Shown here piece after piece: positions 21,330-52,663 of a DNA stretch of 64,000 bases (position 1 is the first letter of the stretch; each line of letters opens with the position of its first letter). A program made the position numbers and the translations under genes. The stretch is taken from the NCBI GenBank assembly GCA_046153645.1, contig JBJXGI010000053.1:1-64000 (forward strand). The letters are read 5' to 3'. Below the pieces are notes generated by a model, which saw only the letters and a program-made list of their open reading frames with translations, did not search any database and had not been told where the DNA came from. The DNA is from Elusimicrobiota bacterium. Its GTDB lineage: Bacteria; Elusimicrobiota; Elusimicrobia; F11.

Positions 21330-24300
21330 TTAAGCCATTTTAAGATGCTGTTTAAATCTTCGAGTCCTATTATCTAAATATTTTTCGCCATAAGGGCGAT
21401 TCTTTTTTGACACTGCTTTCACTCCGTATTTATCTTTTAAGAAGTGTGGTTTCATTGCTCTCAAGACCCAGACAATGCAACATAAACTCAAAATTCCAAG
21501 AAGCGCACCTACGGGAAACCCGTCAAAAACCCAAGGCGAAACATAACCATCAACAGAATCTATAGAAAGTGCTAAAAAAGGCAAGAGAAATATCGCATGC
21601 GAAAATAGAAATTGACCTTTTTCGGGTAATGACCCCTGAGAAGGAATTATTTCTCCCAAAGTAACTTTCAAATTTTGATCAATCGTAATTTTCACATTTT
21701 CAAAATGCCATGCTTCTTTCTCAGATTCCAAAAAGGTTCCTCCGTTAAGAATCAAACGTACTCTTTTTCTATATTTGAACAAATCCGGTTGACTTGCGAT
21801 CAACTGAGAGAGATCAATCTCCCGATTAACTGACCTCGCATCAATCTCAACAACTCCTGAAAAACTCATATCAGGGAATTTCACCTTCCCATGAACCGTT
21901 AGTTTTCTAAGTCCTCTGATAAGCAGTTGTTCGCCGAAAGCGGCCCGAGCGGTGGGAATAGGCTTATAATAAGTATTACTTGGATCTGTTGGATTTAAAA
22001 TAAAAGCCGGAATGGGATCATTAGGATACATGTCGTGGAACATATCTTCCGCGGAGTCATAAACGAATCGATCCGTTCCTGTCAATACCGCGTAATCTAC
22101 CGCCAATTTAATCGGGGAGAAATTTTTAAAACGTTGGCTCACATCTTTTTCGTCCAAGTCAACCACTTTGACAAGATAGGAATGCCCGGTCACTGTCAAT
22201 AATATATTTTTAGCGGTTTTATTGGTTTGTATATATCGGTTGAGCCCCAAAACAACGGAGGCCAAACCTCCGTCTAAGTTTGCAAATCCGTCTTTATTAA
22301 AGTCTCGACGAATGAGGACCGGAGTTAAAATTTCAGCCAATCTAATATCACCTAATTCTTTGTCCCCATACCCTAAAGAGAGAGATAAACGATGCAAAAT
22401 TTCACCGATTACATATTCGTTAATATAAAGCATGTTTGTATTAAATTTTTGATTCCGAACCTTACGAGGATCTCCTGGTTGTCCTGCCATTAAAAACTCT
22501 GTTTTTTGGCCCGCATCAACCGCCTGTTGAAACTCCATCAGATCTAATAACCATTGCTTAGAATGTTCATCATAAACAGCGCCAAACTTCCCTCCTTTAA
22601 TATCGGCTTCTTGAGCTGTCACCGCTACCAACGAAAGAGGAATTTTATTTTTGATCATATCCGCCATATTATTTTCATCCATATGGCTGTTGAGGTTATC
22701 TCCATTGGCAATCACCCGAACATGTGGCGTCACACTGCCACCATGAGACATTGTTTCTCGATACATTTTCATGGCATGAAACAAGAAATGAAAAGCAGGA
22801 TGACCATGCCCTCCTGTTTGATGCGTTTTATGATCTACAGGCTGACTTGTACTTAAAGACAGATCATCTCTTACAACCTTGGGTAATTTCTTTTGATAAG
22901 TATAACCATAATCGATCCCATCATTTCTTAAAACTTTTCTATTTGAATCGATTGGTTGTCCATCTTCATTACGGTGTCGTTGGTCTTCGTTGGCGACCTC
23001 AAGAAGTTCATCGGTATAATACGTTTCCGTTTCCTTACTAACATAAGGTTCATACACAACACGTGCTATTTTCCGAACACCTTTTTTGAACTTCTTCATG
23101 AATTGCGATAATCCTCCCATAGCAAGAGTGATCTTTTTCTTTTGTAAGTCTCCGTCTCTATTGACATAACCCTTTTCAAACATCAAATCGACGCCTTTTG
23201 AGCGTAGCACCTCAGCATCTCTTGGCATGCTCTCACCAATTCCGCCCTCTAAACGTGTAAAAGTTGCAGTCGCATTTTGAAGCACATCCAAATCAGGATC
23301 TCTCGAAATATCATCATAGGGAATAAAACCCAAATTCGCTTGCTCTGCATCTGTTAACATGGAATACATGAGAAAATTTCCATTAGGATTGTCTCTATCT
23401 AGAATCATTTTTCTTTTCATCTTATCTGGATTCATATTAACCCGATATCCCATGTTTTTCTGATATTCAAATCGAAAAAAAGAAACTAAATATTGAGATA
23501 CATTTCTTAAATTGTGCAAAGGACCCACAGGCATTTCAACATACTGCCGGTACAAGCCCAATAAATACAGAAAATCGGGAGATCCTTTTTCAATTCCAGC
23601 CGCGGCGGCAGCCTTTTCGATATTTTCTTGAGACACAGGCGGAACCCCCTGAAACATTTGAATCTGTTTTTTTAGATAATTCCAAAAAAATACTTCGTAT
23701 TTTACTCCGTTTTTACTTCCCAAAAATTGCCTTACTAATTTTACGGCAACAAAAAGCGTTGTTATAAAGGACCTCCCTATGGCAACAATTTTTTTAGGGG
23801 ATGGCCGGTAAGAAGAAGATTGCAATTGTTTTAATTTGTGCAAATCAAACGTAGGTACTGGAGAAACGCTTGAAGTTAGCGGCGCGTCTAAAACAACGGG
23901 ATCATGATTATTGGATAACAATGACCAGCTCCACGTCATAGAAAAAGTTCCTAATAAAAAAATTAAAAACAAAATAAAAAGAAGAGCGGGCGACAAATCA
24001 TCCAAATGAGAAACAAAAGCTCTTGAAAACAAAGAGAAACTCAAGACATACCCTACACTCAAAGTGAAAGCATCAAATCGTCCCGAAAATTTCGAATTAC
24101 TATTCAAAATAAATTTCTTTAGCAATAAGGGCAGAAGCAAAACAATACTTAAAAGTGAAAAATAAGAAATTCCAAATGCGACATAGCCTCCCTCAGAGAG
24201 AGAAACAAAAGATCGGAGAGATAGCACCGCAAAACCAACGATAGAAAAAAGAGAAAAAACAATTGCCAATTTCTGAAATGATAAAAATTTATTGTCCTCT

Positions 24301-27300
24301 TTTTCATTAGGAATTTTTTCTCGGTATAAATCATATAGTGTTAACAGCTTTTTCTTAGCCTCTAACAGTTCGTTACCAATAACCTTTTCAGAGGGAAAAG
24401 TAAAAGGACCATCTGGAGAGGCTCTAGAATACGCTTCCATTTTCTCCAACTGTTTCACCATATCATCCACCATTACTAATAAATCTTCATCGGCCAATTC
24501 GTCATCTTTAGACATCTGATCAAGATCTATATCATAAGGTGCCAAACTATAGACTTTTTCATAAGGTAACCAGTATTGTTGTGGGAAGGTATCAGTGGCT
24601 CTTTGTTGAAAAGAAGGAACAGTCAACAACAAGAAGTTTTTTGGAAGAAAGGGCATTAATTCTGATCTTAAACCACCAGGCTCATCAGAACCTAGTCGCT
24701 TCTCTATTTCAAGCATTTCTTTTTTTTCTGTCTCGTTTTTATTTTTATTTTCTTTTAATTCTAACAATCTTACTAAAAGCTCTTTCCAAGCTTTATCTTC
24801 TGGAATTCGATCCAAAGAATCCTTAAGAATAACTTTAGAAGTAAATTCAATATTTTGTCCCGTATTAGTGGATTCTACTTCTAGTTCGATCATTGAACGA
24901 ATGCGTTCTAATTCCTTTTTACTTCCCATTAAATCCCACCAAAACATTTCTATTAGTGTTAAAAATCGGGCTTTCAGCGAATGCATATTCTGATATTTTC
25001 TTTGACATCTTGATTCTTCACGCTGCCTTAGTAACAGGCGACATTGTTTTATAAAAATACTCTTAAAAAAACTGGCTTCTGTCTGCCCCCATTCTTTTGG
25101 GGTTCGATGCCCACCTTTGCCAGTAAAAATAATTCTCTTAATTTGGTTTTGACTTTCAATTTCAAATAATATGCGAGCCGCATATTCAGGAACTCGAAGA
25201 AAATGAGATCCTAAAATAATCATGGTATCGACATCTCTAATATTTTTTTTATCCAAAGGTCTCTGCAAAAGACCCAGCGGAACTGGTAGATCTTCTTGAC
25301 GAAATTTTATTTTTTCTACAGCAGAAGAGTGTATTAAAAGAGATCTGTCACTAAAAAAACTAACAACAGGTTGCAAATTTCTAATGATTGCTGACCGAGC
25401 ATTGGAGGTCAAAAACGAATTTATTTTATTCTCATGTAACTGCAATCGACTTAAAAAAGAATGCGGAAAACCCAGAATGAAAGTAGTTAAGATAAATAAG
25501 CCAACTGCCAACGGGAAGGAAATCACATTTAAAATGAAAAGTTTTATTATCAGAGGAAATAAAGGAATAAAAATAAAACTGACTGAGACCCTCAAAGTAG
25601 CCAAAGCAGAGATCAATATACCCCACATAGGCTGTTTATTAGCTTGCATGACTCCAGTTGCCAAATGGAATAAAAAAACAAAAATAATTGCGATTGTTGC
25701 GACATAAGCGCTTTGAACAAAAATAACTGAAAACCATTCCGCTGAAAAAGAGTTTAAACCTTGGGCAATAAGCTGGTATTTCTCAGCAAGAACAAAAAAC
25801 GGGCCAATCAATAAGGGGATAAGCATTGATTCTATTTGCAAGGTACGATCAAGCTTCATTTTTCGCCCTAATACCCAAATGCCCATTAAACCAGGTGATG
25901 AGGGCTGAACCCGAACGGAAACTCGTTTGCCATCAAGCATCAAAGTTTCTGAAGGCGGAGAATTTAAGGAGGAATCTCCAATTGTCATTTCAAGCTCTGC
26001 TGAACCTATTTTCCCCGCAATTTTTTCTCCAGAGCCAAGACGAGACAAAAGCGAGAGATAAAGGTAATACATCATTGAAGAAAGCATCGCTGGCTTACTA
26101 TTGGCGCCAATGAGAAGTTTTTGTGGGATTAAAGATAGATATTGTGCAGAAATTAATTTTTCAAGCGGCGTTTTCTCTTGATGAAATAAGGAAAAATATT
26201 CGGGCGTAGTACCAACCTCAATTGACCGCACTTTAGGGGTTAAAATAATCGTATGACATCTATCCTGAAGAATCTCTTTCATTTCCGGAACATGAAATCC
26301 TCCCCCGATAAAGACAACAGGTTTTCTTTTTTCATTTCCGTTGCTCAAATTTTCCAGAATATTCTGAGCCATTTTAATACTGCGTAAATCAGCCGTCTCA
26401 TAAAAGAGAGCATGGGGTGAATAAGGAGAACTTTTAGGGATTTTTCCTTTTAATTTCTTCGATTCAAAAGGGGTCATACTGAAAAACAATAACTTTTCAA
26501 GTAAATAAAAATCTTCAGATTGTTCAACTACTTTCTTTTCAATTTCATTTTGAATTAACTGGCGATAAGATAGCTGAATCGCGTTATCAACCTCTTCAAA
26601 CAATTGGCTTCCATCAATTTCTTCAATGATTCCTAAGTATTTTTCATACTCCAAAAGAACAGAATATTGCCTGACATCAATCCTTTTCTGGTGTGCCAGG
26701 TCAAAAAGTTTTTTTAAATAATGCTGGAGAGAGATTTTTTTCTGCTGTAAAAAAAACGAGAAATGCAGTAAGAATTCTTTTTCTTTTTGATTAGAAACAT
26801 TCCCAAGCTCTGTCAAAAATAATACTTTCTCTTTCTCAATCTGTTTGAAATCCAACCCCAATTCAACAAGAGAAGCCTGCTGGAATCGTGCCAAGTTTTT
26901 AAAGTTTGCAATAGAGGAAAAAACAAAACGACTCGACAAAAAATTCAACAAGGTTATTTTATTTTTTCGATACTGATAAACCAATTGGTCAAATGACAAA
27001 AGAGCTGAATTAAACACAATGGTTTTTTCTCTATGAAGAGAATGTACATCATCTAAAAATTCCTGAAGAAGCGCCTCACCAGAAGAGACAGCTGATAAAT
27101 AGTGTTTTAAATTTTCTTGGTATAAATTTTCTTCATCCACACCAAAAACAGAGACAAACGACTCTTCCGTTAACCCAATAAAACTGATTCCAGCTATTTT
27201 CTTTGTTTTCAAAAAAGCTTCAGCAACCTTTCTTCTTAATTCGAGCGAGAATTTCCTAAAAGAACCAAATTGAAAATAACCTTGAGCGCCCTCGACATAA

Positions 27301-27689
27301 ACACCACCAATTTTCTTTTCGTCATTCCATTGTTTGATAAGAGTTACAATTTTTTTTTGGGTTTCAGTATGCAAATGGATATCCTGAATCAAGACAATTG
27401 TATGGGGCTTTTCTTTTAAACTTAAAGCGGGAAAAAATTGCACAGAAAAATCCTCTCGAGGGACTGTTAAATCAGCTGAATGTGACTGAGAAAAAAATGA
27501 TCCAAGCACAACATCACTACCACCTTTTCTCAACCCTAATTTATGATCATTATTCTTAAAAGAATTTAGCGCTGGTTGGCTGGCAAATAGTACCTGAGTA
27601 CAAAAATAAATACTCAATACCGAAAAAATCAATGTTTTTCGATATATTATTGGCTTAAACAAATAAGAAAGAAAGGAAGAAATAAACAC
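21330..27689 (-). CDS. Giant multidomain membrane protein A: conserved N-terminal domain, TM block, YdcF/DUF218, TM block, UDP-glucose pyrophosphorylase-like domain
   Basis: IQDIH..VEG..GVD..LRSIKMA..GGFH..TPK..QEKTPL shared with 46148-52663; IILGS/FTGKGG/ESTNTGQN (DUF218); LEGGIGESM, GGHG, NGDNL, DIKGG, FNTN, FSPIK (UDPGP family). Confidence 0.8.
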   Translation of the reverse strand: MFISSFLSYLFKPIIYRKTLIFSVLSIYFCTQVLFASQPALNSFKNNDHKLGLRKGGSDVVLGSFFSQSHSADLTVPREDFSVQFFPALSLKEKPHTIVLIQDIHLHTETQKKIVTLIKQWNDEKKIGGVYVEGAQGYFQFGSFRKFSLELRRKVAEAFLKTKKIAGISFIGLTEESFVSVFGVDEENLYQENLKHYLSAVSSGEALLQEFLDDVHSLHREKTIVFNSALLSFDQLVYQYRKNKITLLNFLSSRFVFSSIANFKNLARFQQASLVELGLDFKQIEKEKVLFLTELGNVSNQKEKEFLLHFSFFLQQKKISLQHYLKKLFDLAHQKRIDVRQYSVLLEYEKYLGIIEEIDGSQLFEEVDNAIQLSYRQLIQNEIEKKVVEQSEDFYLLEKLLFFSMTPFESKKLKGKIPKSSPYSPHALFYETADLRSIKMAQNILENLSNGNEKRKPVVFIGGGFHVPEMKEILQDRCHTIILTPKVRSIEVGTTPEYFSLFHQEKTPLEKLISAQYLSLIPQKLLIGANSKPAMLSSMMYYLYLSLLSRLGSGEKIAGKIGSAELEMTIGDSSLNSPPSETLMLDGKRVSVRVQPSSPGLMGIWVLGRKMKLDRTLQIESMLIPLLIGPFFVLAEKYQLIAQGLNSFSAEWFSVIFVQSAYVATIAIIFVFLFHLATGVMQANKQPMWGILISALATLRVSVSFIFIPLFPLIIKLFILNVISFPLAVGLFILTTFILGFPHSFLSRLQLHENKINSFLTSNARSAIIRNLQPVVSFFSDRSLLIHSSAVEKIKFRQEDLPVPLGLLQRPLDKKNIRDVDTMIILGSHFLRVPEYAARILFEIESQNQIKRIIFTGKGGHRTPKEWGQTEASFFKSIFIKQCRLLLRQREESRCQRKYQNMHSLKARFLTLIEMFWWDLMGSKKELERIRSMIELEVESTNTGQNIEFTSKVILKDSLDRIPEDKAWKELLVRLLELKENKNKNETEKKEMLEIEKRLGSDEPGGLRSELMPFLPKNFLLLTVPSFQQRATDTFPQQYWLPYEKVYSLAPYDIDLDQMSKDDELADEDLLVMVDDMVKQLEKMEAYSRASPDGPFTFPSEKVIGNELLEAKKKLLTLYDLYREKIPNEKEDNKFLSFQKLAIVFSLFSIVGFAVLSLRSFVSLSEGGYVAFGISYFSLLSIVLLLPLLLKKFILNSNSKFSGRFDAFTLSVGYVLSFSLFSRAFVSHLDDLSPALLFILFLIFLLGTFSMTWSWSLLSNNHDPVVLDAPLTSSVSPVPTFDLHKLKQLQSSSYRPSPKKIVAIGRSFITTLFVAVKLVRQFLGSKNGVKYEVFFWNYLKKQIQMFQGVPPVSQENIEKAAAAAGIEKGSPDFLYLLGLYRQYVEMPVGPLHNLRNVSQYLVSFFRFEYQKNMGYRVNMNPDKMKRKMILDRDNPNGNFLMYSMLTDAEQANLGFIPYDDISRDPDLDVLQNATATFTRLEGGIGESMPRDAEVLRSKGVDLMFEKGYVNRDGDLQKKKITLAMGGLSQFMKKFKKGVRKIARVVYEPYVSKETETYYTDELLEVANEDQRHRNEDGQPIDSNRKVLRNDGIDYGYTYQKKLPKVVRDDLSLSTSQPVDHKTHQTGGHGHPAFHFLFHAMKMYRETMSHGGSVTPHVRVIANGDNLNSHMDENNMADMIKNKIPLSLVAVTAQEADIKGGKFGAVYDEHSKQWLLDLMEFQQAVDAGQKTEFLMAGQPGDPRKVRNQKFNTNMLYINEYVIGEILHRLSLSLGYGDKELGDIRLAEILTPVLIRRDFNKDGFANLDGGLASVVLGLNRYIQTNKTAKNILLTVTGHSYLVKVVDLDEKDVSQRFKNFSPIKLAVDYAVLTGTDRFVYDSAEDMFHDMYPNDPIPAFILNPTDPSNTYYKPIPTARAAFGEQLLIRGLRKLTVHGKVKFPDMSFSGVVEIDARSVNREIDLSQLIASQPDLFKYRKRVRLILNGGTFLESEKEAWHFENVKITIDQNLKVTLGEIIPSQGSLPEKGQFLFSHAIFLLPFLALSIDSVDGYVSPWVFDGFPVGALLGILSLCCIVWVLRAMKPHFLKDKYGVKAVSKKNRPYGEKYLDNRTRRFKQHLKMA

Positions 27690-27987
27690 AACTCAATATA
27701 ACTTTGCCGGATTGAAATACCATTAAGATTTTGTAAATTTTCTGTAACATTTTAAAGAACCAGTCGCTTGTTCTGTACGAAAAAATGAGACAGCTGAAGG
27801 GATAAAGCAGGACATTAACTAAATTCAGAAAGAAATAACCCACCAGAGAAAATGGGTCTATTTTTCAAGGAGAATCCTTAAAAGCAGGGTCTATTCTGAA
27901 CCTAAAAAAAACAGCAAGGTTACCCAATTATTACAACATTCTGATGTTAAACAATTGGATGTATGGGTAAATTATTTATAACAAGTT

Positions 27988-29409
27988 TCACTTTTCTACA
28001 CGAATAATACTACCGAATTGGGGGGTCAATGGGCCTTCTTTGGTTTTCATTTTGATCCAGTAATCACCGGGGGTAACCTTAGCTCCCGCTGAAATGGTGG
28101 TTTTGGCTTGCGTGGGTGAAATATATTCGAATTTGCCAATAATAATCTGAGAATCATCAACCTCACATTGAATAGATTCGATAAACTCTTTTGATAAATC
28201 CTTGCCGTAAAGGGTTAATAGGGCCTGCCCCTCCGGCTTTAAACTGGGAGAAATGTCCAGATTCCGAACCCAATTGGGGTTTACAACAACAAAAGCGTCT
28301 CCTAAGCTACTCAATGTTTCACTCGCTAAAACAACGGACAAAGAATAAGACCGGGCTGGAGCGTCTTTAGGAATAGAAAATTTAAAATCGATTCTGCCAG
28401 GTGATCGATATGTAAAAGACGAAGATTGCATTGTTATTCCATCCATCAGAACTTTCAATTGATTCATTGAATCTGGCTGAAAACCACTTCCCTGGAGCAT
28501 GAAAAGACCATATTCTCCTGGCCGATAAAATCTTTCGAGAGATTGAATTCTTTGAACCAACCCTGATTGCCCCAAGTTGGGCTTGACCACTCGAATAATG
28601 CCAGGGCGATCCCATAAAGTTTTTGCGCCCATTTTAACTTTAATCCCATAATCCCCACCGGGAGCCCCTCCAATATCAATATCCCCATCAACCACAAAAG
28701 GGTAAATCGGGACTAAACTATTAACACGAATGGAAGGAGTGGAAGGTTCAACGGTAAAATCGTTGAACATTTTTTCATCTAGATTGGTAAAAATGCGAAA
28801 GCGCCCAGAACGACCCGCCTCACTCATCTCAGTAAAAATGAGGTTTAAAACTTCTCCAGGTCGAATCACCGCATAAGGATCGGGAGCCTGAAAAACAACT
28901 TTGTCATTAATTAAAACCTGAGGAAAATTGACCGTCGTGGCCGCATGGGGGCTAACATGGAGAACTCCACTAATTTGATTGGGCGTCTTCAAAGCCAAAC
29001 TTTTAACCTGTATCTCATTATTGCCCGACTTTACTTGAATCATCTTTTCAAACTCTTTTGTAAAACCAGAACCGTTGATATCAAATGGAATTTGGCTATC
29101 AGGGCCACTCAATGACTGCGCGTAATAAATTCTGATAATTTCAATATCTTTCGGAATAAGTTCTTTGTGAATTTTTACTGGCGGGGGAGTCTGAACCTGA
29201 GATGAAGCCACCGGGTCTTTTGTTTTTATTTTTTTCACAATTTCTGATGATTTTTGCTGATTAAATTCAGGAAGAGTCTCAACAGGAAGAGGGATTGTTT
29301 TACTGACTTCTTCTTTAAGAATTTCAGGTTTTCCACATGATCGCAATAGTAACCAGATAACAATCCCAACAACAATGACTCCTGCAACAGTGAAAACTTT
29401 TTTATCCAA
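27988..29409 (-). CDS. Membrane-anchored protein with repeated IPT/TIG-like beta domains
   Basis: N-terminal TM helix; repeated FDINGSGF / FMLQGSGF / LTLYGKDL and PGxY motifs. Confidence 0.55.
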   Translation of the reverse strand: MDKKVFTVAGVIVVGIVIWLLLRSCGKPEILKEEVSKTIPLPVETLPEFNQQKSSEIVKKIKTKDPVASSQVQTPPPVKIHKELIPKDIEIIRIYYAQSLSGPDSQIPFDINGSGFTKEFEKMIQVKSGNNEIQVKSLALKTPNQISGVLHVSPHAATTVNFPQVLINDKVVFQAPDPYAVIRPGEVLNLIFTEMSEAGRSGRFRIFTNLDEKMFNDFTVEPSTPSIRVNSLVPIYPFVVDGDIDIGGAPGGDYGIKVKMGAKTLWDRPGIIRVVKPNLGQSGLVQRIQSLERFYRPGEYGLFMLQGSGFQPDSMNQLKVLMDGITMQSSSFTYRSPGRIDFKFSIPKDAPARSYSLSVVLASETLSSLGDAFVVVNPNWVRNLDISPSLKPEGQALLTLYGKDLSKEFIESIQCEVDDSQIIIGKFEYISPTQAKTTISAGAKVTPGDYWIKMKTKEGPLTPQFGSIIRVEK

Positions 29410-29410
29410 A

Positions 29411-31757: not shown

Positions 31758-32125
31758 CGTCTTTGATTATGATAAATCCAAATAAAGATAAGCATAAGAA
31801 TTATTCCCACGGAATCAAAAAGAACATCAGACAATGATGGCCCACGCCCGGGGACAAAAGCTTGATGCCATTCATCAGCAAAAGCATATAACAAAGAGGA
31901 GAGGAAACTATAGAAATAAATCCTTTTAGATTGTATAGGAAACACAGTTATTTTTAAGGCTCGATAAATGAATCCTGTTAAAACAAAAAACTCAAAAACA
32001 TGAGCCCCTTTTCTTAAGTAAAAATCCCAATTTCCTAATCCGCTATTAAGACTCGGGATGCTTGAAAACCAAAAAATAAGACCGGCCCAACAAAAAACGG
32101 GCAACCAAGCTAGAATCAATATCAC
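31745..32125 (-). CDS. VanZ family protein
   Basis: RKGAHVFEF, YAFADEWHQAFVPGR..S..D; GTG at 32125 overlaps the upstream stop. Confidence 0.88.
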   Translation of the reverse strand: MILILAWLPVFCWAGLIFWFSSIPSLNSGLGNWDFYLRKGAHVFEFFVLTGFIYRALKITVFPIQSKRIYFYSFLSSLLYAFADEWHQAFVPGRGPSLSDVLFDSVGIILMLIFIWIYHNQRRWKK

Positions 32126-34540: not shown

Positions 34541-34541
34541 C

Positions 34542-39294: not shown

Positions 39295-39314
39295 GGGATT
39301 CTCCTTGTTTCAAA

Positions 39315-40577: not shown

Positions 40578-40592
40578 AAATCATTCTTCCTG

Positions 40593-40629: not shown

Positions 40630-40637
40630 CAATAAAT

Positions 40638-40747: not shown

Positions 40748-40799
40748 TGCTACTAAAAGACACCAAATCTTACTAAATTTTCCTAAAAAAATTCAGCGA

Positions 40800-42656: not shown

Positions 42657-42657
42657 A

Positions 42658-44747: not shown

Positions 44748-44799
44748 GAGAATGAAATTCCTTTTGATTGAGTTAACATCAGATATGCATCGATAAGGG

Positions 44800-44808
44800 A
44801 TTATACCA
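44800..44808 (-). promoter_or_regulatory. Extended -10 element upstream of glmM
   Basis: TGGTATAAT on the minus strand. Confidence 0.5.
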
Positions 44809-44869
44809 GAAAAACCAAATTCCTCCGAGGAGAATTGATAAAAAGAGTCTTTAAACACCAGGGCAGACG

Positions 44870-46096
44870 TTAAGGCAAATGAGCCAGCCATCGATCAGCG
44901 GAAACAACCCATTGAATGAAGCCATCTGTCTTAATTTTTTTGCAAACACCCTGTTTATGAAGAAGTTGAATTGATACTGAAACCCCAAGTTTTTTTTGAA
45001 AATAAGAAAGCGATGGGGAGACGTCTTCTTCTGACGTTTTACATTCAATCAAACAAAGTATTTTTTTATCTTTAACCAAACAAAAGTCCACCTCGCGCTT
45101 CTCTTTGTCTCGGAGGTAGTGGAGGGAAATTTTTCCTTCTCCCATTGCTTCCCATGTTTTGACTGCTTTAAGGAGATGAAGAGCCACGACATTTTCAAAG
45201 CGATAGCCCGTCTCAGGAATTTCCACCCAATCGTAAAGATAGACTTTCGTTTCTTTTCTGAGTGAACGTGCCAACGTCCCTGTGTATGGAGTGACGCGGA
45301 AAAGGTAAAAGAAACGATCGAGAAGAAGTAGCCAATCACGAACCGTTTCAAATGCAACACCAATGTCTTCTTTTAAAGCGTTAATAGAAAGAGGGCTTCC
45401 AACACGCTCTGGAACAAGATGCGAGAGCATTTCGAGGAGCGAAAGGTCTTTGATGTGAACCATACTTCGGATGTCCTCTCTCAAAAGAAGACTCTTTCTC
45501 TCTTGAAACCATCGATTGTAAAAACTTGTTGTCCCACGCAAAAACGGCTCAGGGAAACCACTGTACTGAAAAAGATCATCATATTTTGATCGAACAGACC
45601 CCGTTGACTCCGGAACGTCTACCAGCATCTCTTTGAACTCCTTGAGAGTGGTCCGTTTTTCATGTAGCTCTCCTAAACTCAAAGGGAAAAGTGGGATACT
45701 GAAATAACGCCCCAACAGACTGTCTCCGCCTTTTTTAAAAAGTTCAAGGCGACCGCTTCCTGTTACCAAAAAGCGAAACTCAGTCTTAAAATCATCATAT
45801 GCCCCTTTCAAATAATTTTTCCATCGACTGTATTTGTGGATTTCATCAAACACAACCAAAAACGGTCTTTTGGGATCCCGGTTCTCTTTTTGAAAAAAAT
45901 AAGGATCTTTGAGCAGCTTCTTTTGATTGATCACATTATCCCAGTTAAAGTAGATACCTTGACCGAAATGGTTTCGATAATCTTGAGCCAGTGTCGTCTT
46001 CCCCACCTGACGTGGCCCGCTTAGGAATGCCATCTTATTGAAAGCTTCAACTGTCTCTTTTAAAAGAGGGAGAGTGGTTCGTTTAATCATGAGCAT
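44870..46096 (-). CDS. AAA+ ATPase with DUF4143 C-terminal domain (AAA_14 family)
   Basis: GPRQVGKTT, FDEIHK, TGS, SLLGR, GFPE, K.YLYD, FEN.V, EVDF...IECK. Confidence 0.9.
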   Translation of the reverse strand: MLMIKRTTLPLLKETVEAFNKMAFLSGPRQVGKTTLAQDYRNHFGQGIYFNWDNVINQKKLLKDPYFFQKENRDPKRPFLVVFDEIHKYSRWKNYLKGAYDDFKTEFRFLVTGSGRLELFKKGGDSLLGRYFSIPLFPLSLGELHEKRTTLKEFKEMLVDVPESTGSVRSKYDDLFQYSGFPEPFLRGTTSFYNRWFQERKSLLLREDIRSMVHIKDLSLLEMLSHLVPERVGSPLSINALKEDIGVAFETVRDWLLLLDRFFYLFRVTPYTGTLARSLRKETKVYLYDWVEIPETGYRFENVVALHLLKAVKTWEAMGEGKISLHYLRDKEKREVDFCLVKDKKILCLIECKTSEEDVSPSLSYFQKKLGVSVSIQLLHKQGVCKKIKTDGFIQWVVSADRWLAHLP

Positions 46097-46147
46097 ATTT
46101 TAGACCTAAGTCTAATAAAGTCAAGACTTTTTTAGACTTGAGTCGAA
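46097..46147 (-). promoter_or_regulatory. Promoter overlapped by three palindromic boxes upstream of the AAA/DUF4143 gene
   Basis: ttagac-ctaa-gtctaa (46100-46115), aaagtc-aa-gacttt (46117-46130), ttagac-ttga-gtcgaa (46132-46147); TTGACT-16-TAAAAT on the minus strand. Confidence 0.65.
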
Positions 46148-49100
46148 TTAAGCGCCAACAGCCACAACTCGCGCCAACCCAATAACAAACCCGAGATTTC
46201 GAACTGGAAACTCTGACATGGCTGACAGCAATTCTTCTAGAGAAAGGTATTTGATGTGGTACAGAATGGAGGACTGAGTGGGTCCTGATGCCATCAGTTG
46301 CAACAACAGATCTCTTGATATCACAAAATCCGGCAACAGTTGATTGCTTGCTTGTAAGGCGGTCATCGTTTGCTCAAAGACGATTTTGTTTATTTTTCCT
46401 TTTGAGAAAAGGCCCTTTTGTGGCATCAGTTTAATCTGCCACTGAAGGTTTTTTCTCAGGAGTTTCTCAAATTCTTTTTGATCATTTTCATCTATGACGA
46501 ATTCGAAATTCATGGAACGATTTAGATACTGCTTTAACTTTTTACTTCTTAAATCTTTAGCCCGAAGCACCATTTGAACCGCCTTTCCTTTCAAATGTCG
46601 CTTGTTTATGGTGTTTTCGTCTGGTGATCTTGCCACCTTTTCTGCCAACTCCAAGGCCTCTTCTGGTTCCAATTTACGCTCTTTATCTTTTAAGGTGTTT
46701 TCTAATTCCCGCACCAATAATTCCAATTTTTCCGGGTCAGATTGGCTTATCGCTTGGCGCGCCAAAGGATTATCCAAGCCCATTTTGACAACTTGTCCCG
46801 TGAGGCTATTTAAAATGTCGCCGGCCCGCTTAGATTGAATTAAATCCGCTTGCTCTGAAATTCCCCACTTCTTAGCCACATCCGTCAAAACCGCCTCTAC
46901 AACCAGTACGACCACATTGGCAAACAGAAAATAGAAGGAAACAAAGAGAACAACATAATCGACGAGAGAATGAGAAAAGAAAATAAGTGCGGGGATATAA
47001 ACGAGAAGTGAAATAATAACCATGAAAATATTTACGTAGATGCCGTACATGGCAGGCGGCCCGCGTGTTTCCCACGGCATTTTTCCGGTGAACATACCTC
47101 GAATTATTTTCAAGGTACCATAATCGAGTCGTTTTCCTTCAGTCGGCCCACCAATCAAGTGCCCGCCTTCATGAGAGGTGATTCCACCGAAAAAAACTGT
47201 TCGGACAAGCCAATTTAACCACATGAGATTATTTCTTTTCGCCCAGTTGGAATTAAAAATATTGGCGAAGAGGGAAGGGGTTTCTGATGTTAAAGTTGCG
47301 GGTGATAAAAGCGTCTGATTCTGTCTTCGGAATATTTCCAGATAAAGGGAGATTCTTTCAAGAATCAATGCTAAGTCAGAGTTAATTCGATCGTAACCGA
47401 TTCGTTGCGCAATAATTTTGATGAGGTCAAAACTTGTTACCACCTGCCCTCGATGCGCGGAGAGAAACGCCTCGCGTACCAATTCGCGAATGAACAATCG
47501 ACGAAGAAATGGCGGAAGGTTAAAACGATTTTGGAGATAAACTTCCTCTACCACATCAAATGGCACATTAATATTTTTAATATCAAACGCTGTCGATGGG
47601 AACTCCAAACGAAATACTGTTTTCCCATTCTGAGAGAGAAGATCAAAATGGGCACCCAACCATTCCGATATCATTTCGATCTGATTTAGTGCAACGCCAT
47701 TTTCCCCAGAAAGATTAAAATATTTTTTATCTTCACCTCTAATGGTTGTAAACCGCCAAGCAGTCAATATTGAAAAAATGTCAGCTGCAGATAAATCGGT
47801 CTTATGACCTAGTTGAGTAAGAATGCGAATGGATTTCCAAATTTTTGGCTCTTCTCTATTATAGTGAACAACTTCATCCGTATCACCCGTACCTTCTTGC
47901 AGCCGAAGGCGTAACGATCTTATGATGACAGGAATCTGTTTTCGAATTTTTTCAGGATCGATGACACCGGGATTTGAAATTTCTAATGCCAAGGTTCCCA
48001 ATTTATAATTTTTGAAAATTCTAATTTTGATCTCGCTGGTGGACCACTTAGGATTTGATCGCGCCCATGCATCGTGAGCATTTTTTAGAATTTCGCGGAC
48101 GCTATGCATAAGTAAATATATGGCCCAAGGATCGTGAGCCGTCACATGGGCTTTTTGGTTTATGAAATCTCCGAGCTTTTTATCACCATATTCAGCACTT
48201 AAAATATAATCTTTATCTTCAGAAGATCCTTCCCACACCAGAACCATTTCGTCTTTGGAGTCGTTTTGTGAATTGCCAAACGTCAGTGGCCGCTGTCCTA
48301 TTTTCCACGCTCTCTTATTAAAATCACGGTGCGCCCTAACGCCACTCCACCAAGAAATTGCCGCTGCTTTTTTGATCTCTTTCCATCCCACTGTCAGCCA
48401 GTCTCTTTCCTCATCATCTTTGGGGTCGTGTTTTTCGACAAACCCCTCTTTCGCATGTTCCCCCGCTTCCCAAATTGGCGCGAAACGGATGGAAATGAAT
48501 TTTTTTCTTAATGTCCACACAGCCAATGGAATGGTGAAGGCAAATGAATAAAAAACAGAACTATGATAAGTTGCGATAAAAAGAAATGTAGCATTAAAAA
48601 TAAAATGAATTACTCCAAAGAAGATATAACCAGAAGTGTAGGTAGACTGAAGTGTAGCTGGAGATTTTATTATTTCCCCCTGATATTTTCCTTTTAGAGC
48701 GGTTTCATTTTTATCTCCATATTGCTGCTCAATCAATAGTTGATTTAAATTTGGGAATAAATTGCGAACAGCCAACACAACGGGATTCCTGGTCTGTTGA
48801 TATAAAGGTAATGTTACAGGTGTAATTTTCTCCAGTCTTCTCCCTGGAAATAAATTATTTTTATCTATAGGAAGGTGAGAAGCATTAAAATCAAAGAATC
48901 CATGAAGAACATACCCAGTCCAATTAATTTTAAATTGAGAAATTTTATTTGGCTGGCCCTGAGTTAAAGTAATTGAATTGGCTTGGGATGAACAATTACC
49001 AAGACCCTGAAGAACGAATCCGAAAAATTGAGCCGGAGTTAAATGTTCAGCTAAAACAATGCTTTCGGCATCCCAAATAAAAGGAAGTTCTTCACCGTTT

Positions 49101-52100
49101 ATTTTAATGGTCCCATAATTAGCTCTGTAAAGCTGCATATGGACAATTCCGCGTTCGGCAAGGCGTTTATACAACAAACCATTATCGTTATTAATTTTCT
49201 CAAGAACGCGGTGCAACTCAGAAGTTTTTCGAAGATTTTCTCGCTCAGGCGCATTTGCAGCCAGATATTCCTTTGTAAATGGTTGATATTTTGAAAATTG
49301 ATTGTTTATGTTCTCTATTGAACTTGTAATCAAATCTCTAGGCGGCAATCCCAATACAACCATTCCTGCCGATCTATCTTGTGGCGTAGTGTCACCAGGC
49401 AATTCATAAAGGCACAAAGGAGGAGGCGTAAGAAACCCCTTTTTTAAAAGTGCTTGCCCTCCTAAAAATTCCGCAACAGCGTCTTCGAAATTCAACCCAT
49501 ATAAAGGATTAAAGTGATATTCCTCTGTGTAATAAATCCCACTGGGAGTGAAGTTCTCATCTCCAGGCTGAAAATGAGCTGGGACTAGACCCTCTCGTCT
49601 TAACCTTTCGGCAGGATCAAAAATGATAGCTGCGTTTTCTAAAGTACCGCCTTTCACTTTGATCGTCTTGAGAGGGAACCCATTAATCATGACAACGTCT
49701 GGAAGATCAATTTCTAAACTACGTTCAAACTTATTGCTGTCGCCTTTGTGGGAATTGCGCCGGTCATAATCAACTCCAAGTTTTAATTTTGAAAATGGAG
49801 TTTTCACAATTTTTTCTATTTTGTCTTTCAGCCAAGGGTAAATTGCAATCAATTGTGCATAAACATCCGTTGTTTCATGCAAAATAAACTCGCGACTTTT
49901 GTCATTTTGTGGCAATGGTGGCTGTTCCGCGGTGGGAACATTAGTTATATCTACCGACACTAAATCGACTACGCCGTTCAAAACAGCGCTAATTTGTGGA
50001 ATGATGGAAAAGTCAATCGCATTCAGCAATTCCTCTGCTGCTTCGTTTCCTCTCAAAAGTGTGGATTGCATGCGCCTTTTTAATTCATCTCTGGGTTCTT
50101 TATTCCTAATAGCTTCAAGCCATGCCCCTGCAATTTCATTAAGTCGTGGCAAGGAAGACTCACCAACACCCACATGTTTTATGGCCATCATCAACTGATT
50201 CAAAGCATCGAGAGCGTTAGGGTTTATGGAATCGGGTGCCAAGGGTTTATAAGGTTCTTTTTTCTTTCGACTAAACAAATCCCAAATGGCTAAATACGCC
50301 CCCTCTTTCAAGGCCGATTTTGAACCGGATGTGGCTGCACTTAATAAAAACATACCTACGTTGTAAGACATGTGAACCAAAATAGCAGAGACCAAACTGT
50401 TTGATTCGACATAGGTCAGAACAATTAAAGTTGTGCCTCCAGTTTGAAGGCCCAGACGAGCGATGAAGGCAGTAACAAAATTTATATTTTTTTCGACAGC
50501 ATCTTTTTTCGCCAAACTAAAACTTCGCGGAATGTGGAATGCAAAAAACGTAAAACCCATAAGAATGGGACTTAAACCCCATATCCCTATTAAAAGCTCA
50601 CGAAAAATCAACTCTTCCAGAAAAGGTAAAAAAATAAAAATGCTACCCACAGAAAAAATAACCACCCTTCGTTCATAAACAACTTTCACAAATTCACCAG
50701 TCCGATCAAACCAGGCTGACAAAACCCCCCGCGGAAATTTAATGGCCACTTTTCCGGCAAACCCAGAAAATTTTTTAACAAGTTCATAAAGCGCGAAAAT
50801 ACTGGCTTGCGAGGAAGGGATGGGCGCTTCCGCCAAAAACAGTTTTTCTCCTTCAAACAATTGGTCGAGCGGAGTTTTTTCTTGCGCGAACACAGTGAGA
50901 TAGGACGACCCATTTTCTGAATTGACCTTCGTGATTTTAGGAGTAAAAGAAATAACCGTGTAACCTGCTTCGCTTAAACGTTGGTCGATGCCGGCCGAAT
51001 GGAAACCACCCGTAACCAAAACTGCGTTTTGGTAATTTCCAAAACCCAAATCACAATGATCAATTGATTTTTTTAGTTTTGGAGATTTGTTTGTTATTTG
51101 ATATTTGGTATTTGAGTTTTCAATGATCTTTAGAAAATTACTTGCCATTTTTTCATCTCGAATTTCCGCTTGCTTATAAAAATTCTCAAAAGACTCTAAG
51201 GCAAACCCCTCCCCGCCTTCCCTCCCCACCGAAAAACGTGGGGAGGAATTTATATATTCTCCCCATTCTTCTTTTGTTAGTGAAAAGTCCACTAATTTTT
51301 TAGTTAAAGATAATGCGTGTGATTCTTTAATCAATTGTTTTTCAACGTCTGTGTTAGCGAGTGAGGAATAAATTGATTCCTCCATTTTTTCAATACTTTT
51401 GAATAAATCATCTGCGTTAATTTGGTCGCTTAAAAGCACATACTGAAGATACGAATTCATCGCAGGATAGCGGGACAACGCAATTTCTTTTTTATCGCAG
51501 AGATTTTTCAAACGAGCGTAAAAATCGGCATGAGAAATATTTCCCAAACGATAAGCCACACTGGTCGCAATCAGAGATTGAGACTCAAAAGTGCCTAGCT
51601 TAGCCAAGAGCTGTGAGAGAAGTTGACCTCGCTCCCTTTCAACGGCAGCGAAATTAAGGCGGGATTCCAAATGAATCGCTTTCAAGAATATTTGAATCTG
51701 AAAATGCTCATTAAAACCCTTATCCGTGTCGTCGCCCCGGCGGAGGCCGGGGTCCAGGTCGTTAACCGGCTTTTTAGAAAAAAGTTTAAAGCTGGAAAGA
51801 AACTCCACATATTTCCCCAAAGACAAAGTATCGCCACGGTACAATTCGACCTGGCAATCAAAATCGTAAAGAGCTGCATTAAAAATTGTTTTCTTCTTTT
51901 GAGCAAGTTCGGTTCTTAGCTCATTTAACTGCTGCTTATTCTTTTCAATATGAGAGGCCGATTGCCGGTAAGCTTCTACATTTGCCTTATAATGAGCGGA
52001 ATCATCAACCCCGATAAATCGAGGAAGGGTTTGCCCCGAACGCAGTTGAAGAGTGAAACCCGTATAAATCGGCCCAGAGACTTTATTTTCCCGAAGCAAA

Positions 52101-52663
52101 TAGTTGGCCACTTTTCTAGTTGCCTCTGGTGGAAACACCCTGAAAGGGTTTAAATCGATGGGGTTAAACGCGCCTTCCAACGCAATGAGATCAACCTGAT
52201 TACCATCAATAAGTCCTTGAATGGTTTTGCCGATATTTTTTTGGGCTTCGGCGTTTCGATGGACATCTTGGATGTGAATGACGATTCGTCCATTTTTTCC
52301 CTCACCCTGACCCTCTCCCCGACGGGGAGAGGGAAGAGTGATTTCTTGAATTGTTCCGTATTGGGTTGATAAGTTTTGAAACAGAGAAGAGAGTTGGGGT
52401 GCAATATCCTTTGGAACCGATTCTTCAAATTGGCGTGGCAAAGACGCTTGAACATGAGGAAGTTGCTGCAAGATCGAGTGAGAATTTTCCAGAGCAACAT
52501 TTGAAGGCAATTGCGCTAATTGGATTGACTTTTTGTTGTCAACAGAACGTCGACGCTCTGCCCAAACAGACTTCTTTGGGTTATGGGCAAATGCACAATT
52601 TGTGGCGAAATAAATAATGGCCAACGCAGTGGAAATCGATCGAATAAAAACTCGCTTTTTCAT
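46148..52663 (-). CDS. Giant multidomain membrane protein B: conserved N-terminal domain, CPBP protease, kinase-like, HATPase-like and HExxH modules
   Basis: Signal peptide ending AFA; IQDVH..LEG..GVD..IRDEKMA..GGFH..TPK..QEKTPL; EELIFR/FFAFH/HMSYN; HMQLYRAN..WD; EILKNAHDA..ISNPG; HEGGH. Confidence 0.8.
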   Translation of the reverse strand: MKKRVFIRSISTALAIIYFATNCAFAHNPKKSVWAERRRSVDNKKSIQLAQLPSNVALENSHSILQQLPHVQASLPRQFEESVPKDIAPQLSSLFQNLSTQYGTIQEITLPSPRRGEGQGEGKNGRIVIHIQDVHRNAEAQKNIGKTIQGLIDGNQVDLIALEGAFNPIDLNPFRVFPPEATRKVANYLLRENKVSGPIYTGFTLQLRSGQTLPRFIGVDDSAHYKANVEAYRQSASHIEKNKQQLNELRTELAQKKKTIFNAALYDFDCQVELYRGDTLSLGKYVEFLSSFKLFSKKPVNDLDPGLRRGDDTDKGFNEHFQIQIFLKAIHLESRLNFAAVERERGQLLSQLLAKLGTFESQSLIATSVAYRLGNISHADFYARLKNLCDKKEIALSRYPAMNSYLQYVLLSDQINADDLFKSIEKMEESIYSSLANTDVEKQLIKESHALSLTKKLVDFSLTKEEWGEYINSSPRFSVGREGGEGFALESFENFYKQAEIRDEKMASNFLKIIENSNTKYQITNKSPKLKKSIDHCDLGFGNYQNAVLVTGGFHSAGIDQRLSEAGYTVISFTPKITKVNSENGSSYLTVFAQEKTPLDQLFEGEKLFLAEAPIPSSQASIFALYELVKKFSGFAGKVAIKFPRGVLSAWFDRTGEFVKVVYERRVVIFSVGSIFIFLPFLEELIFRELLIGIWGLSPILMGFTFFAFHIPRSFSLAKKDAVEKNINFVTAFIARLGLQTGGTTLIVLTYVESNSLVSAILVHMSYNVGMFLLSAATSGSKSALKEGAYLAIWDLFSRKKKEPYKPLAPDSINPNALDALNQLMMAIKHVGVGESSLPRLNEIAGAWLEAIRNKEPRDELKRRMQSTLLRGNEAAEELLNAIDFSIIPQISAVLNGVVDLVSVDITNVPTAEQPPLPQNDKSREFILHETTDVYAQLIAIYPWLKDKIEKIVKTPFSKLKLGVDYDRRNSHKGDSNKFERSLEIDLPDVVMINGFPLKTIKVKGGTLENAAIIFDPAERLRREGLVPAHFQPGDENFTPSGIYYTEEYHFNPLYGLNFEDAVAEFLGGQALLKKGFLTPPPLCLYELPGDTTPQDRSAGMVVLGLPPRDLITSSIENINNQFSKYQPFTKEYLAANAPERENLRKTSELHRVLEKINNDNGLLYKRLAERGIVHMQLYRANYGTIKINGEELPFIWDAESIVLAEHLTPAQFFGFVLQGLGNCSSQANSITLTQGQPNKISQFKINWTGYVLHGFFDFNASHLPIDKNNLFPGRRLEKITPVTLPLYQQTRNPVVLAVRNLFPNLNQLLIEQQYGDKNETALKGKYQGEIIKSPATLQSTYTSGYIFFGVIHFIFNATFLFIATYHSSVFYSFAFTIPLAVWTLRKKFISIRFAPIWEAGEHAKEGFVEKHDPKDDEERDWLTVGWKEIKKAAAISWWSGVRAHRDFNKRAWKIGQRPLTFGNSQNDSKDEMVLVWEGSSEDKDYILSAEYGDKKLGDFINQKAHVTAHDPWAIYLLMHSVREILKNAHDAWARSNPKWSTSEIKIRIFKNYKLGTLALEISNPGVIDPEKIRKQIPVIIRSLRLRLQEGTGDTDEVVHYNREEPKIWKSIRILTQLGHKTDLSAADIFSILTAWRFTTIRGEDKKYFNLSGENGVALNQIEMISEWLGAHFDLLSQNGKTVFRLEFPSTAFDIKNINVPFDVVEEVYLQNRFNLPPFLRRLFIRELVREAFLSAHRGQVVTSFDLIKIIAQRIGYDRINSDLALILERISLYLEIFRRQNQTLLSPATLTSETPSLFANIFNSNWAKRNNLMWLNWLVRTVFFGGITSHEGGHLIGGPTEGKRLDYGTLKIIRGMFTGKMPWETRGPPAMYGIYVNIFMVIISLLVYIPALIFFSHSLVDYVVLFVSFYFLFANVVVLVVEAVLTDVAKKWGISEQADLIQSKRAGDILNSLTGQVVKMGLDNPLARQAISQSDPEKLELLVRELENTLKDKERKLEPEEALELAEKVARSPDENTINKRHLKGKAVQMVLRAKDLRSKKLKQYLNRSMNFEFVIDENDQKEFEKLLRKNLQWQIKLMPQKGLFSKGKINKIVFEQTMTALQASNQLLPDFVISRDLLLQLMASGPTQSSILYHIKYLSLEELLSAMSEFPVRNLGFVIGLARVVAVGA
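51034..51120. repeat. In-frame heptamer-based imperfect palindrome inside giant gene B
   Basis: Minus strand caaatac-caaatat-caaataa-caaa...gatttgggttttggaaatt; corresponds to a ~23-aa insertion relative to paralog A between KMA and GGFH. Confidence 0.65.
51206..51246. repeat. In-frame REP/boxC-like hairpin element inside giant gene B
   Basis: Pyrimidine tail cccctccccgccttc, then perfect 9-bp stem cctccccac/gtggggagg; encodes SPRFSVGREGGEG. Confidence 0.75.
51728..51757. repeat. In-frame RPE/dRS3-like palindromic element inside giant gene B
   Basis: gtcgtcg-ccccggc-ggag-gccgggg-tccag; encodes LDPGLRRGDD. Confidence 0.75.
52030..52053. repeat. Degenerate CCTGAGCnnnGTCGAAGG-type REP-like element inside giant gene B
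   Basis: tttgccccgaacgcagttgaagag; encodes LQLRSGQT in a loop about 5 aa longer than in paralog A. Confidence 0.45.
52299..52333. repeat. In-frame boxC/REP-like hairpin element inside giant gene B
   Basis: ccctcaccctga, then perfect 10-bp stem ccctctcccc-gac-ggggagaggg; encodes PSPRRGEGQGEG. Confidence 0.8.

Follow-up and report, generated by a model that had tools for sequence, protein, structure and literature searches.

The Elusimicrobiota and Omnitrophota are known for huge proteins of unknown function, which have been linked to a predatory or host-dependent life. The closest published class to the proteins studied here is that of the Archaeovorin-type, multi-enzyme giants of Omnitrophota (10.1101/2023.11.21.568195; 10.64898/2026.06.07.730766). 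In the accessible text of the first preprint, West-Roberts et al. described Omnitrophota giants with transmembrane (TM) segments, divergent enzymes and N-termini generally without identifiable domains, proposed C39 and S8 peptidases for their cleavage and noted large proteins in Elusimicrobiota; in that of the second, Nielsen and Lui catalogued 916 long proteins. The available part of a further paper describes Elusimicrobiota as rich in uncharacterised huge proteins (PMC11573180). Here, we analysed a stretch of 64,000 nucleotides from an Elusimicrobiota bacterium (GCA_046153645.1, contig JBJXGI010000053.1, positions 1 to 64,000; hereafter the window), which contains two giant open reading frames (ORFs), A and B. 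Both are members of a very large family that has apparently not been described, in which a new TIKI-like domain (the head) stands in front of a variant of the known multi-enzyme membrane giants.

The constant parts of these proteins, which we call the chassis, are a leader, the hydrolase-like head, His-bearing membrane modules between cargo domains, a tail ending in Ala and an element upstream of the gene. This chassis has been kept while cargo was exchanged and whole genes were inserted at new sites. With a rough probability of 40%, we propose that the family consists of chassis-plus-cargo polyproteins that are regulated together, process themselves and serve in contact with a host or prey cell. 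A small, well-folding head with an invariant site, common to thousands of giants, turns the questions of function and cleavage into experiments on a 55-kDa domain. In addition, the head, tail, spacer modules and promoter element offer markers to find, join and classify giant genes in fragmented genomes. If cargo does reach another cell, this would be a new delivery route.

Size and distribution of the head family

Both giant ORFs reported in the first-pass annotation of the window are present at the lengths given there. The significance of their proposed N-terminal homology, which had been set as a check, was established by BLASTP (A 98-520 against B 128-610, 26% identity, E 6e-39), and the limits obtained, 26130-27398 and 50834-52282, are close to those claimed (~26140-27420 in A and 50840-52300 in B). 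The alignable core comprises ~420 amino acids (aa) in A and ~480 aa in B, rather than the 500-600 aa claimed for the common domain. A series of short motifs, running from IQD[IV]H..Q to QEKTPL, was found in the same order in both proteins, as had been noted. All other segment pairs of A and B gave E >= 0.8 in BLASTP. The view that the two proteins are unrelated after the head therefore stands as far as BLAST is concerned, but not for their architecture, as each has a His-bearing membrane module, placed ~90-150 aa behind the head, and a tail helix that ends in Ala.

A and B do not stand as an isolated pair of paralogs, as had been assumed. In the source genome (2.63 Mb, 105 contigs, 99.7% complete), a head profile matched 48 ORFs, 42 of them with a near-complete head and always at the N-terminus, and the family comprises about 47 loci. 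The matching ORFs add up to 320 kb (12% of the genome), and the head is present in 41 of the 93 ORFs that encode 1,000 aa or more. Most family ORFs encode 1.3-4.4 thousand aa; the longest head-bearing one encodes 10,189 aa. Two family genes (contigs C23:17491-20204 and C80:20555-28463) are in pieces, seen as overlapping ORFs with an Ala-ended last piece, and represent frameshifts or assembly errors.

The heads of this genome are 22-61% identical to each other (median 30%). When a phylogenetic tree of 230 head sequences was reconstructed, 38 heads of the source genome fell into 20 separate clades containing only heads of this genome, mostly with weak support, and A and B were not sisters. An alignment of 62 heads (A1; 29% mean column identity, 20 distant heads included) matched 10,107 of 1.84 billion cluster representatives at E <= 0.001, including 7,106 at E <= 1e-30. 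Head matches occurred in 64 of 201 Elusimicrobiota genomes, with an uneven distribution (0/58 in one family and 39/63 in another), and five genomes scored in full had 21, 20, 14, 12 and 0 matches. The named homologs belong to Elusimicrobia; an Omnitrophica protein fragment also matched the head (E 4e-100), and the three nearest Atlas clusters (0.88-0.90, without Pfam match) are mostly from Omnitrophota. A tblastn search of 50,697 phage and 72,556 plasmid records gave no match of the head. NCBIfam has no family for A or B and, in agreement with the first reading of the window, no named family for this architecture was found in Pfam or NCBIfam.

Fold and putative active site of the head

The AlphaFold2 model of the head, built on A1 (predicted local distance difference test score 84, predicted template modelling score 0.84), has a parallel sheet broken by ~270 helical residues. 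It was compared with known members of the TIKI superfamily, namely ChaN (2G5G, PF04187), EreC (6XCQ), BcR135/136 (2RAD, 3B55, 2QGM), HopBA1 (5T09), RRSP (5W6L) and PMT C2 (2EBF). In a fold search against 48,161 solved chains, scores were obtained for ChaN (Z 8.4, 187 residues aligned, root-mean-square deviation (rmsd) 5.7), EreC (Z 8.3, 202 residues, rmsd 9.8), BcR136 (Z 8.0, 177 residues, rmsd 4.8), BcR135 (Z 7.9), HopBA1 (Z 7.0) and, at ranks 14-15, PMT (Z 6.1) and RRSP (Z 5.8); values under 8 in this tool may reflect a common arrangement. Superfamily entries fill five of the top six rows of this wide search, in which an unrelated methyltransferase ties at Z 7.9 on 98 residues. A second search had Ere-type entries and HopBA1 in all of its top six rows.

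At the sequence level, the Pfam ChaN profile (PF04187) matched 20 of the 62 heads at E <= 0.05 (best 2e-6). Full-length A and B had no ChaN match in Pfam, TraB (PF01963) and Ere (PF05139) were absent among the best 25 of the 30 families for the 62 heads, and a PDB sequence search with the head of A gave no match. Weak matches of the head profile to calmodulin and myosin light chains in PDB, which fell on the helical insert (best E 0.0013), were attributed to helical composition and discarded.

Five residues of the head, D, H, E, R and H, are invariant in the closer homolog set (229/229, 229/229, 232/232, 228/228 and 227/227 covering sequences, respectively) as well as in all 62 rows of A1. They are laid out as D-x-H after strand 1, E 28 residues later after strand 2, and then R, and H after a late strand. 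The His-to-Glu spacing of 28 is that of EreC (H50/E78) and RRSP (H3902/E3930), the equivalence to the TIKI catalytic set being judged by spacing and secondary structure. Because seven superfamily members rank at the top, weak ChaN matches exist and the residues fit, the modelled head is assigned to the TIKI/ChaN/erythromycin-esterase-like proteins, with the superfamily fold and its two-His/two-acid plus Arg set both recognisable. The fold and residue spacing suggested at first pass are thus upheld by fold search, spacing and invariance. The accompanying statement that the superfamily is metal-dependent was too broad: in the accessible text of two papers, Tiki needs metal, EreC and RRSP do not, and the catalytic set is missing from PMT (PMC7979712, PMC6254334). 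RRSP is described there as a peptidase of the TIKI fold (PMC6254334). In view of the five invariant residues, it is likely that the head is an active hydrolase.

As a separate observation, GC-rich hairpin elements are read in frame within the head region of B (52294-52335, ~51200-51251 and ~51701-51770). The hairpin at 52294-52335 has 25 blastn-short matches in the genome, 9 of them within family ORFs, and contigs of other DNA match the window only at this stretch.

Exchange of cargo domains

The cargo proposed for A, a DUF218 and a UDPGP-like domain, was recovered by Pfam on cut-out regions (Table 1). For B, the CPBP protease passed the Pfam cut-off and a HATPase_c match below it was found, the HExxH module was read in the sequence, and the kinase-like module remained a SelO/MchC-like lead. 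The UDPGP part of A weakly matches plant and trypanosomatid UDP-glucose pyrophosphorylase structures (best E 0.0098), and it was not found in five related genomes when used as a query. The DUF218 domain of A had no sequence match in PDB.

We further scanned 39 other paralogs (six without their first 500 aa) with Pfam, and 19 of them had a post-head match at E <= 0.001. Their cargo includes sigma-70 regions, AAA_5/vWA, SNF2 and SF1 helicases, methyltransferases, HATPase, cNMP-binding domains, metallophosphoesterase, NUDIX, phosphoribosyltransferase and propellers; toxin families were not among these matches. Glycosyltransferases, hexokinase, PPDK, HEAT, GNAT and more are added by 120 listed homologs from outside the genome. 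Among closest-head pairs of 210 proteins, the median share of the body in common was 14% where the heads were >= 80% identical (n=9), falling to 11% at 65-80% (n=18) and to 0% at lower identity, and only 28 of the 210 shared half or more of the body with any other protein; the libraries used were clustered and contain fragments, which biases these figures towards different bodies. Likewise, the cap and post-head linker of B recur in P0005 and one paralog, both of which have other cargo. The scans and the body comparison both agree with the constant N-terminal domain and variable C-terminal cargo proposed at first, and the constancy of homolog C-termini, which had been set as a check, did not emerge. 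The 10,189-aa paralog (C86:11315-41881) has AAA_5 and vWA domains and, spaced out between its cargo blocks, a membrane HExxH module that is repeated eight times.

Membrane modules and topology

Most stretches common to different bodies are membrane modules. HExxH or a strict His...His-x3-Asn/Asp motif was present in 38 of 112 TM clusters of the family and in 8 of 285 of other proteins (shuffle mean 1.3). In a set of 244 proteins, 135 modules of this kind were counted, distributed over 95 of the proteins, and an upstream Glu motif was detected in 47 of the 135 (shuffle maximum 36). One paralog besides B passes the PF02517 cut-off, and one matches M50 just below the cut-off. The HExxH module of B presumably resembles a site-2 protease. 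A hidden Markov model (HMM) of the modules found one canonical CPBP protein at E 0.02 and the CPBP domain of B at 0.17. In a fold search with one module, SpdC, which we take to be a CPBP member, ranked 25th (Z 4.7). A Pro-Leu-small motif following the modules was considered as a cleavage site and rejected (15 of 135, compared with a shuffle mean of 8.7 and maximum of 17).

Lys and Arg residues lie on the module flanks (2.2-2.5 per 15-16 aa) and after the first His, and are scarce in the hairpin loops (0.3-0.5), which is the reverse of eight canonical CPBPs; the modules were partly chosen by hydrophobicity, which lowers the loop counts. According to the positive-inside rule, the cargo should therefore be cytoplasmic in whichever membrane holds the module. 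Some paralogs have no membrane segment for ~2,000 aa after the head. In two other genomes (G003 and G004), the head forms a signal-peptide protein of its own (559-613 aa) beside separate signal-peptide partners (L134:7143-10690, L135:4656-10394). One partner ends in Ala and has no membrane segment, and another has a weak HATPase-like domain (E 0.001), a type of domain that needs ATP. These stand-alone heads are a split form of the system, as seen from three partners in two genomes; free partners of this kind were not recognised in the source genome.

Leader, tail and upstream element

A signal-peptide-like leader, claimed at first pass for A and B, was seen by eye in both proteins and in paralogs, where W-x-E-R-R follows in most cases; in the family proteins of another genome (G043), acidic residues take the place of this motif. 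At the other end of the chain, among complete ORFs with a head and 1,000 aa or more, 30 of 32 end in Ala after an amphipathic helix, compared with 101 of 1,453 other ORFs (p 4e-31). One of the two exceptions overlaps the next, Ala-ended ORF and is probably a frameshift. The same end was found in 121 of 178 outside homologs, many of which are cut by contig ends, and in 18 of 20 proteins picked from three further genomes. Many paralogs have a cap domain (200-290 aa) in front of the tail. The caps split into many clusters, several of them unlinked, and a single profile covering all of them was not obtained; A has no cap.

The upstream element consists of two short direct repeats spaced 11 bp apart, a layout that we take to resemble OmpR/PhoP-type boxes. 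It was detected before 29 of 45 family genes (leave-one-out) and before 14 of 1,575 other genes, and the sites of A and B rank within the top four. Outside the family, the highest-scoring sites lie in front of an FG-GAP/fibronectin giant, a PorV-like protein and a signal-peptide protein of 6,600 aa. By eye, the element was present at ~4 of 10 genes of two other genomes (G124 and G170) and at 0 of 10 of G043. The 8,730-aa FG-GAP/fibronectin protein (C79:12477-38690) and the PorV-like TPR protein (C79:49671-51659), which have the same element, flank a family gene. The ORF of more than 6,600 aa (C87:10610-30481) has a signal peptide and the best copy of the element, without head or Pfam match, and is a candidate structural or delivery partner.

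Genomic context

B lies with a Fic gene and an AAA_14/DUF4143 gene on a 9-kb insert (44870-53851) between cdaA and glmM, which are ~150-270 bp apart in four of five relatives, those in which both genes matched. No integrase was seen in this insert. Between 44000 and 54000, four DNA runs from a single study, which may derive from the source sample and cover this region patchily, had no indel or joint where they gave coverage. The DNA runs that best match the window are biofilter metagenomes, all from one study, and no RNA dataset was among the listed runs containing its DNA.

Recurring neighbours of family genes are AAA/DUF4143 ATPases and one TPR pair, the others being housekeeping genes. Downstream of the 43 listed family ORFs, no family of small genes was found among ORFs of at least 80 aa, and the head-less Ala-ended ORFs are pieces cut by contig ends or frameshifts. 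The genome has one SecA (an 895-aa ORF, the single SecA_DEAD match), one tail-specific protease and eleven ATPases of type II secretion or type IV pilus systems, two of which are directly upstream of family genes.

Some further features of the window were noted. A 473-aa membrane-anchored ORF (27988-29409) directly upstream of A is without NCBIfam or Pfam match, and a 544-aa ORF (32122-33756) is without NCBIfam match. A 199-aa HNH nuclease-like ORF (38109-38708; IscB/Cas9 HNH models, far below cut-off) overlaps an amidase gene, and genes for TolQ/ExbB, two TolR/ExbD, TonB-like and TPR proteins stand in a row at 59317-63995.

Table 1. Features of proteins A and B and of adjacent genes in the window
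Feature	Position	Strand	Remarks
TPR protein	19392..21323	-	7 bp downstream of A; another family gene is followed by a relative (29% over 334 aa)
Giant protein A	21330..27689	-	2119 aa, GTG start
A, C-terminal helix ending in Ala	21333..21380	-	no cap domain recognised
A, last membrane hairpin	21459..21605	-	hydropathy
A, eukaryote-type UDP-glucose pyrophosphorylase-like domain	21630..23279	-	Pfam UDPGP above cut-off, E 2.5e-6
A, second membrane block	23895..24269	-	residues ~1141-1265, hydropathy
A, DUF218 (YdcF/ElyC-like) domain	24555..25229	-	Pfam E 6.6e-5, below cut-off; C-terminal limit approximate
A, four-helix membrane module	25410..25856	-	residues 612-760; CPBP-like succession of Glu, His and His without the final Asn; outside strict test and module HMM
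A, head, TIKI/ChaN/Ere-like	26130..27398	-	residues 98-520; putative catalytic D103, H105, E133, R436, H466
A, signal-peptide-like leader	27582..27689	-	residues 1-36, from sequence; start codon uncertain; no W-x-E-R-R
Upstream element before A	27733..27748	-	two short direct repeats 11 bp apart; score 22.1, leave-one-out
AAA_14/DUF4143 ATPase	44870..46096	-	part of B insert; relatives flank four other family genes
Giant protein B	46148..52663	-	2171 aa
B, C-terminal cap domain (~210 aa) with Ala-ended helix	46151..46786	-	common to three ORFs of the genome and four outside proteins
B, HExxH module with membrane hairpin	46787..47248	-	from sequence; common to P0148
B, GHKL (HATPase_c)-like domain	47594..48112	-	Pfam E 5.6e-4, below cut-off
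B, membrane hairpin with Glu/His/His-x3-Asn segment	48269..48619	-	common to one paralog
B, kinase-fold-like module	48704..49873	-	SelO/MchC-like lead; common to one other paralog fragment; no Pfam match
B, CPBP/Rce1 intramembrane protease core	50357..50659	-	residues 669-769, three motifs; PF02517 27.9 bits, cut-off 22.4
B, head, TIKI/ChaN/Ere-like	50834..52282	-	residues 128-610; putative catalytic D133, H135, E163, R502, H555
B, signal peptide (1-26) and W-x-E-R-R (34-39)	52547..52663	-	from sequence
Fic/DUF4172 gene	52712..53851	-	part of B insert; Pfam, synteny
Upstream element before B	52732..52747	-	within 3' end of Fic gene; score 22.5

Possible function of the family

If the proteins are polyproteins for host or prey contact, as we tentatively propose on sequence grounds, the family genes would be switched on together with large surface proteins; such co-regulation is suggested because the best non-family sites of the upstream element precede surface giants and the PorV-like gene. 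The signal peptide would export the head, which may act as a hydrolase, most likely a peptidase maturing the chains of its own family. The membrane modules would anchor the chain, and some of them would cut it and free cargo domains, while the tail might serve as a sorting or turnover tag. The purpose would be contact with a host or prey cell, on or in which freed cargo (sigma-70-like, helicase, methyltransferase, nucleotidyltransferase and kinase-like domains) would act. The proposal draws on the invariant head residues with their EreC- and RRSP-like spacing, on RRSP being a peptidase, on the exchange of cargo, on the enrichment of HExxH and CPBP-like motifs in the membrane modules, on the Ala-ended tail, on the separate heads and partners of G003 and G004 and on the eleven type II secretion or pilus ATPases. 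A published result that we count in favour is that peptides of the V. archaeovorus giant rise 3-fold in attached cells, according to a passage citing this work (PMC10066038). A bolder version, which we regard as unlikely at present, would be a new, contact-dependent delivery system of Elusimicrobiota and Omnitrophota with dozens of co-regulated polyproteins per genome. In this version, the TIKI-fold head and Ala-ended tail would address the chains, which would be put into or across the partner membrane and cut by their own intramembrane proteases, so that cytoplasm-acting enzymes and sigma-factor-like domains are freed inside the host or prey. The record-length Omnitrophota proteins would then be built on this chassis as well.

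A number of results speak against contact polyproteins of this kind. The fold scores of the head are only moderate (Z 8.4-7.9, rmsd 4.8-9.8), Foldseek with the head model gave nothing at E <= 0.001 (EreC at rank 7, E 0.9), and whole-protein ChaN (PF04187) scores of 21.7-24.5 bits are under the cut-off of 27.7 bits. The TIKI fold also covers esterases, a heme binder and non-enzymes in the accessible text of PMC7979712 and PMC6254334. For the modules, a relaxed motif test was weak (59/112 in the family and 80/285 in other proteins), comparison of degenerate modules with an 8-sequence canonical CPBP profile gave an hhalign probability of 0.4-0.6, no listed CPBP rose above background in the fold search with one module modelled as a four-helix bundle, and no conserved cleavage motif was found after the modules. 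Of 233 helices behind the head, only 30 have the hydrophobicity needed to return the chain, and the Lys/Arg bias fits cargo lying in the cytoplasm of the producer, which is hard to square with an exported head. The cargo is mostly regulatory or metabolic rather than toxic. Finally, VipB and VirB4 had no match in the genome, and therefore no type VI or type IV secretion route was found.

In a strong rival explanation, which we still consider somewhat unlikely, the chain would lie in the inner membrane of the producer, with the head outside and the cargo in its own cytoplasm. The head would then sense or hydrolyse an outside signal, membrane proteases would free sigma-like and enzyme cargo inside by regulated intramembrane proteolysis, and the Ala tail would be a degron. 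Lys and Arg on the module flanks instead of the hairpin loops, opposite to the eight canonical CPBPs, fit this arrangement, as does cargo that needs ATP, S-adenosylmethionine or DNA; moreover, hydrophobic modules should stop in the membrane of the producer during Sec export, and C-terminal Ala-Ala degrons are known. On the other hand, it leaves unexplained why 12% of the genome is spent on fast-swapping, mostly unrecognisable cargo, as well as the signal-peptide partners in G003 and G004 with a tail or an ATPase-like domain, and the long stretches without membrane segment after the head. A further strong rival, though on balance quite unlikely, is that the proteins form an uncut coat of the surface or envelope, in which the head hydrolyses an external ester or peptide of the host envelope, or does no more than bind a ligand, and the His modules serve as metal-binding or structural anchors. 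The esterases and heme binder among the fold relatives would suit such a coat, many modules lack one catalytic residue (the first module of A among them), and the available passage of PMC10066038 mentions a coat as the proposed role of the V. archaeovorus giant. However, cytoplasm-type cargo would be idle outside the cell, and intact CPBP and M50 Pfam matches stand right after the head in some paralogs.

The analogy to polymorphic toxins drawn in the first-pass annotation fails on immunity genes and orphan cassettes. Classical toxins for inter-bacterial competition, in which the toxin is C-terminal and paired with a cognate immunity gene, would account for the constant N-terminus, the variable C-terminal part and the many paralogs, but no family of small genes was seen downstream of the 43 listed ORFs, among ORFs of at least 80 aa, and, therefore, the proteins are not of the classical type. 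In addition, the fragmentary head-less ORFs are not orphan cassettes, and the extreme C-terminus is a conserved tail, with a cap and an Ala-ended helix, rather than a toxin, with no toxin Pfam in the 39 paralogs. This explanation is thus very improbable.

Comparison with known systems

No paper on the head or the chassis was found in the published literature, subscription journals being mostly outside the search. The TIKI head, CPBP-like spacers, tail and shared upstream element are unnamed in the searched text of both Omnitrophota preprints. More specifically, Tiki and TraB are absent from the main text of West-Roberts et al. (10.1101/2023.11.21.568195), whose supplements could list such matches, and Tiki, CPBP and PF04187 are unmentioned in the main text of Nielsen and Lui (10.64898/2026.06.07.730766), whose supplements or Zenodo catalogue could list them. 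A term search in the accessible text of 10.1101/765248 was without match.

As far as their descriptions in the accessible text go, the Archaeovorin-type giants are alike in having a signal peptide, scattered TM helices, sequence-unique bodies, a proposed cleavage and divergent cytoplasm-type enzymes (methyltransferase, HATPase, NUDIX, GNAT). The head in an Omnitrophica protein and the mostly Omnitrophota origin of the nearest Atlas clusters provide a link between the two. It is by these descriptions that the present family is set apart: its members are mostly 1.3-4.4 thousand aa (one of 10 thousand) and not >= 30,000 aa, number about 47 per genome, and include no SecA-DEAD domain, which occurs only in the single SecA of the genome.

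Compared with the TIKI superfamily, the head has the same parallel beta-sheet core, an acid-x-His after strand 1, Glu 28 residues later and late Arg and His. It differs in that the first acid is Asp, a helical insert of ~270 residues is present, no Pfam family of the superfamily matches above cut-off, and the domain is always N-terminal in giant chains or stands alone beside partners. Many of the membrane modules keep the Glu, His and His-x3-Asn/Asp of CPBP/Rce1 (PF02517) and M50 (PF02163) proteases. They differ from these in being repeated within giant chains, in their longer hairpins and in their inverted Lys/Arg bias, and most have no profile or fold link to CPBP.

Polyvalent proteins, in the accessible text of PMC5512222, also have unrelated enzyme domains on one chain, with interspersed zincin-like peptidases proposed to process it. 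Unlike them, the family described here is chromosomal among housekeeping genes, has a signal peptide, membrane modules and a TIKI head, and has no head match in the phage and plasmid records searched above. MARTX and polymorphic toxins share with it a constant delivery part and exchangeable effectors, provided that the head has a trafficking role as we infer. MARTX toxins are, in addition, autoprocessed, and one of their effectors has a TIKI fold (PMC6254334, accessible text). The present family has no RTX repeats or cysteine protease domain among its Pfam matches and no immunity genes were seen, whereas it has a Sec-type leader and integral membrane modules; the TIKI-like domain is cargo in MARTX and the constant part here. 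It belongs neither to the MARTX toxins nor to the polyvalent proteins, and any likeness to them in mode of action is at most an analogy.

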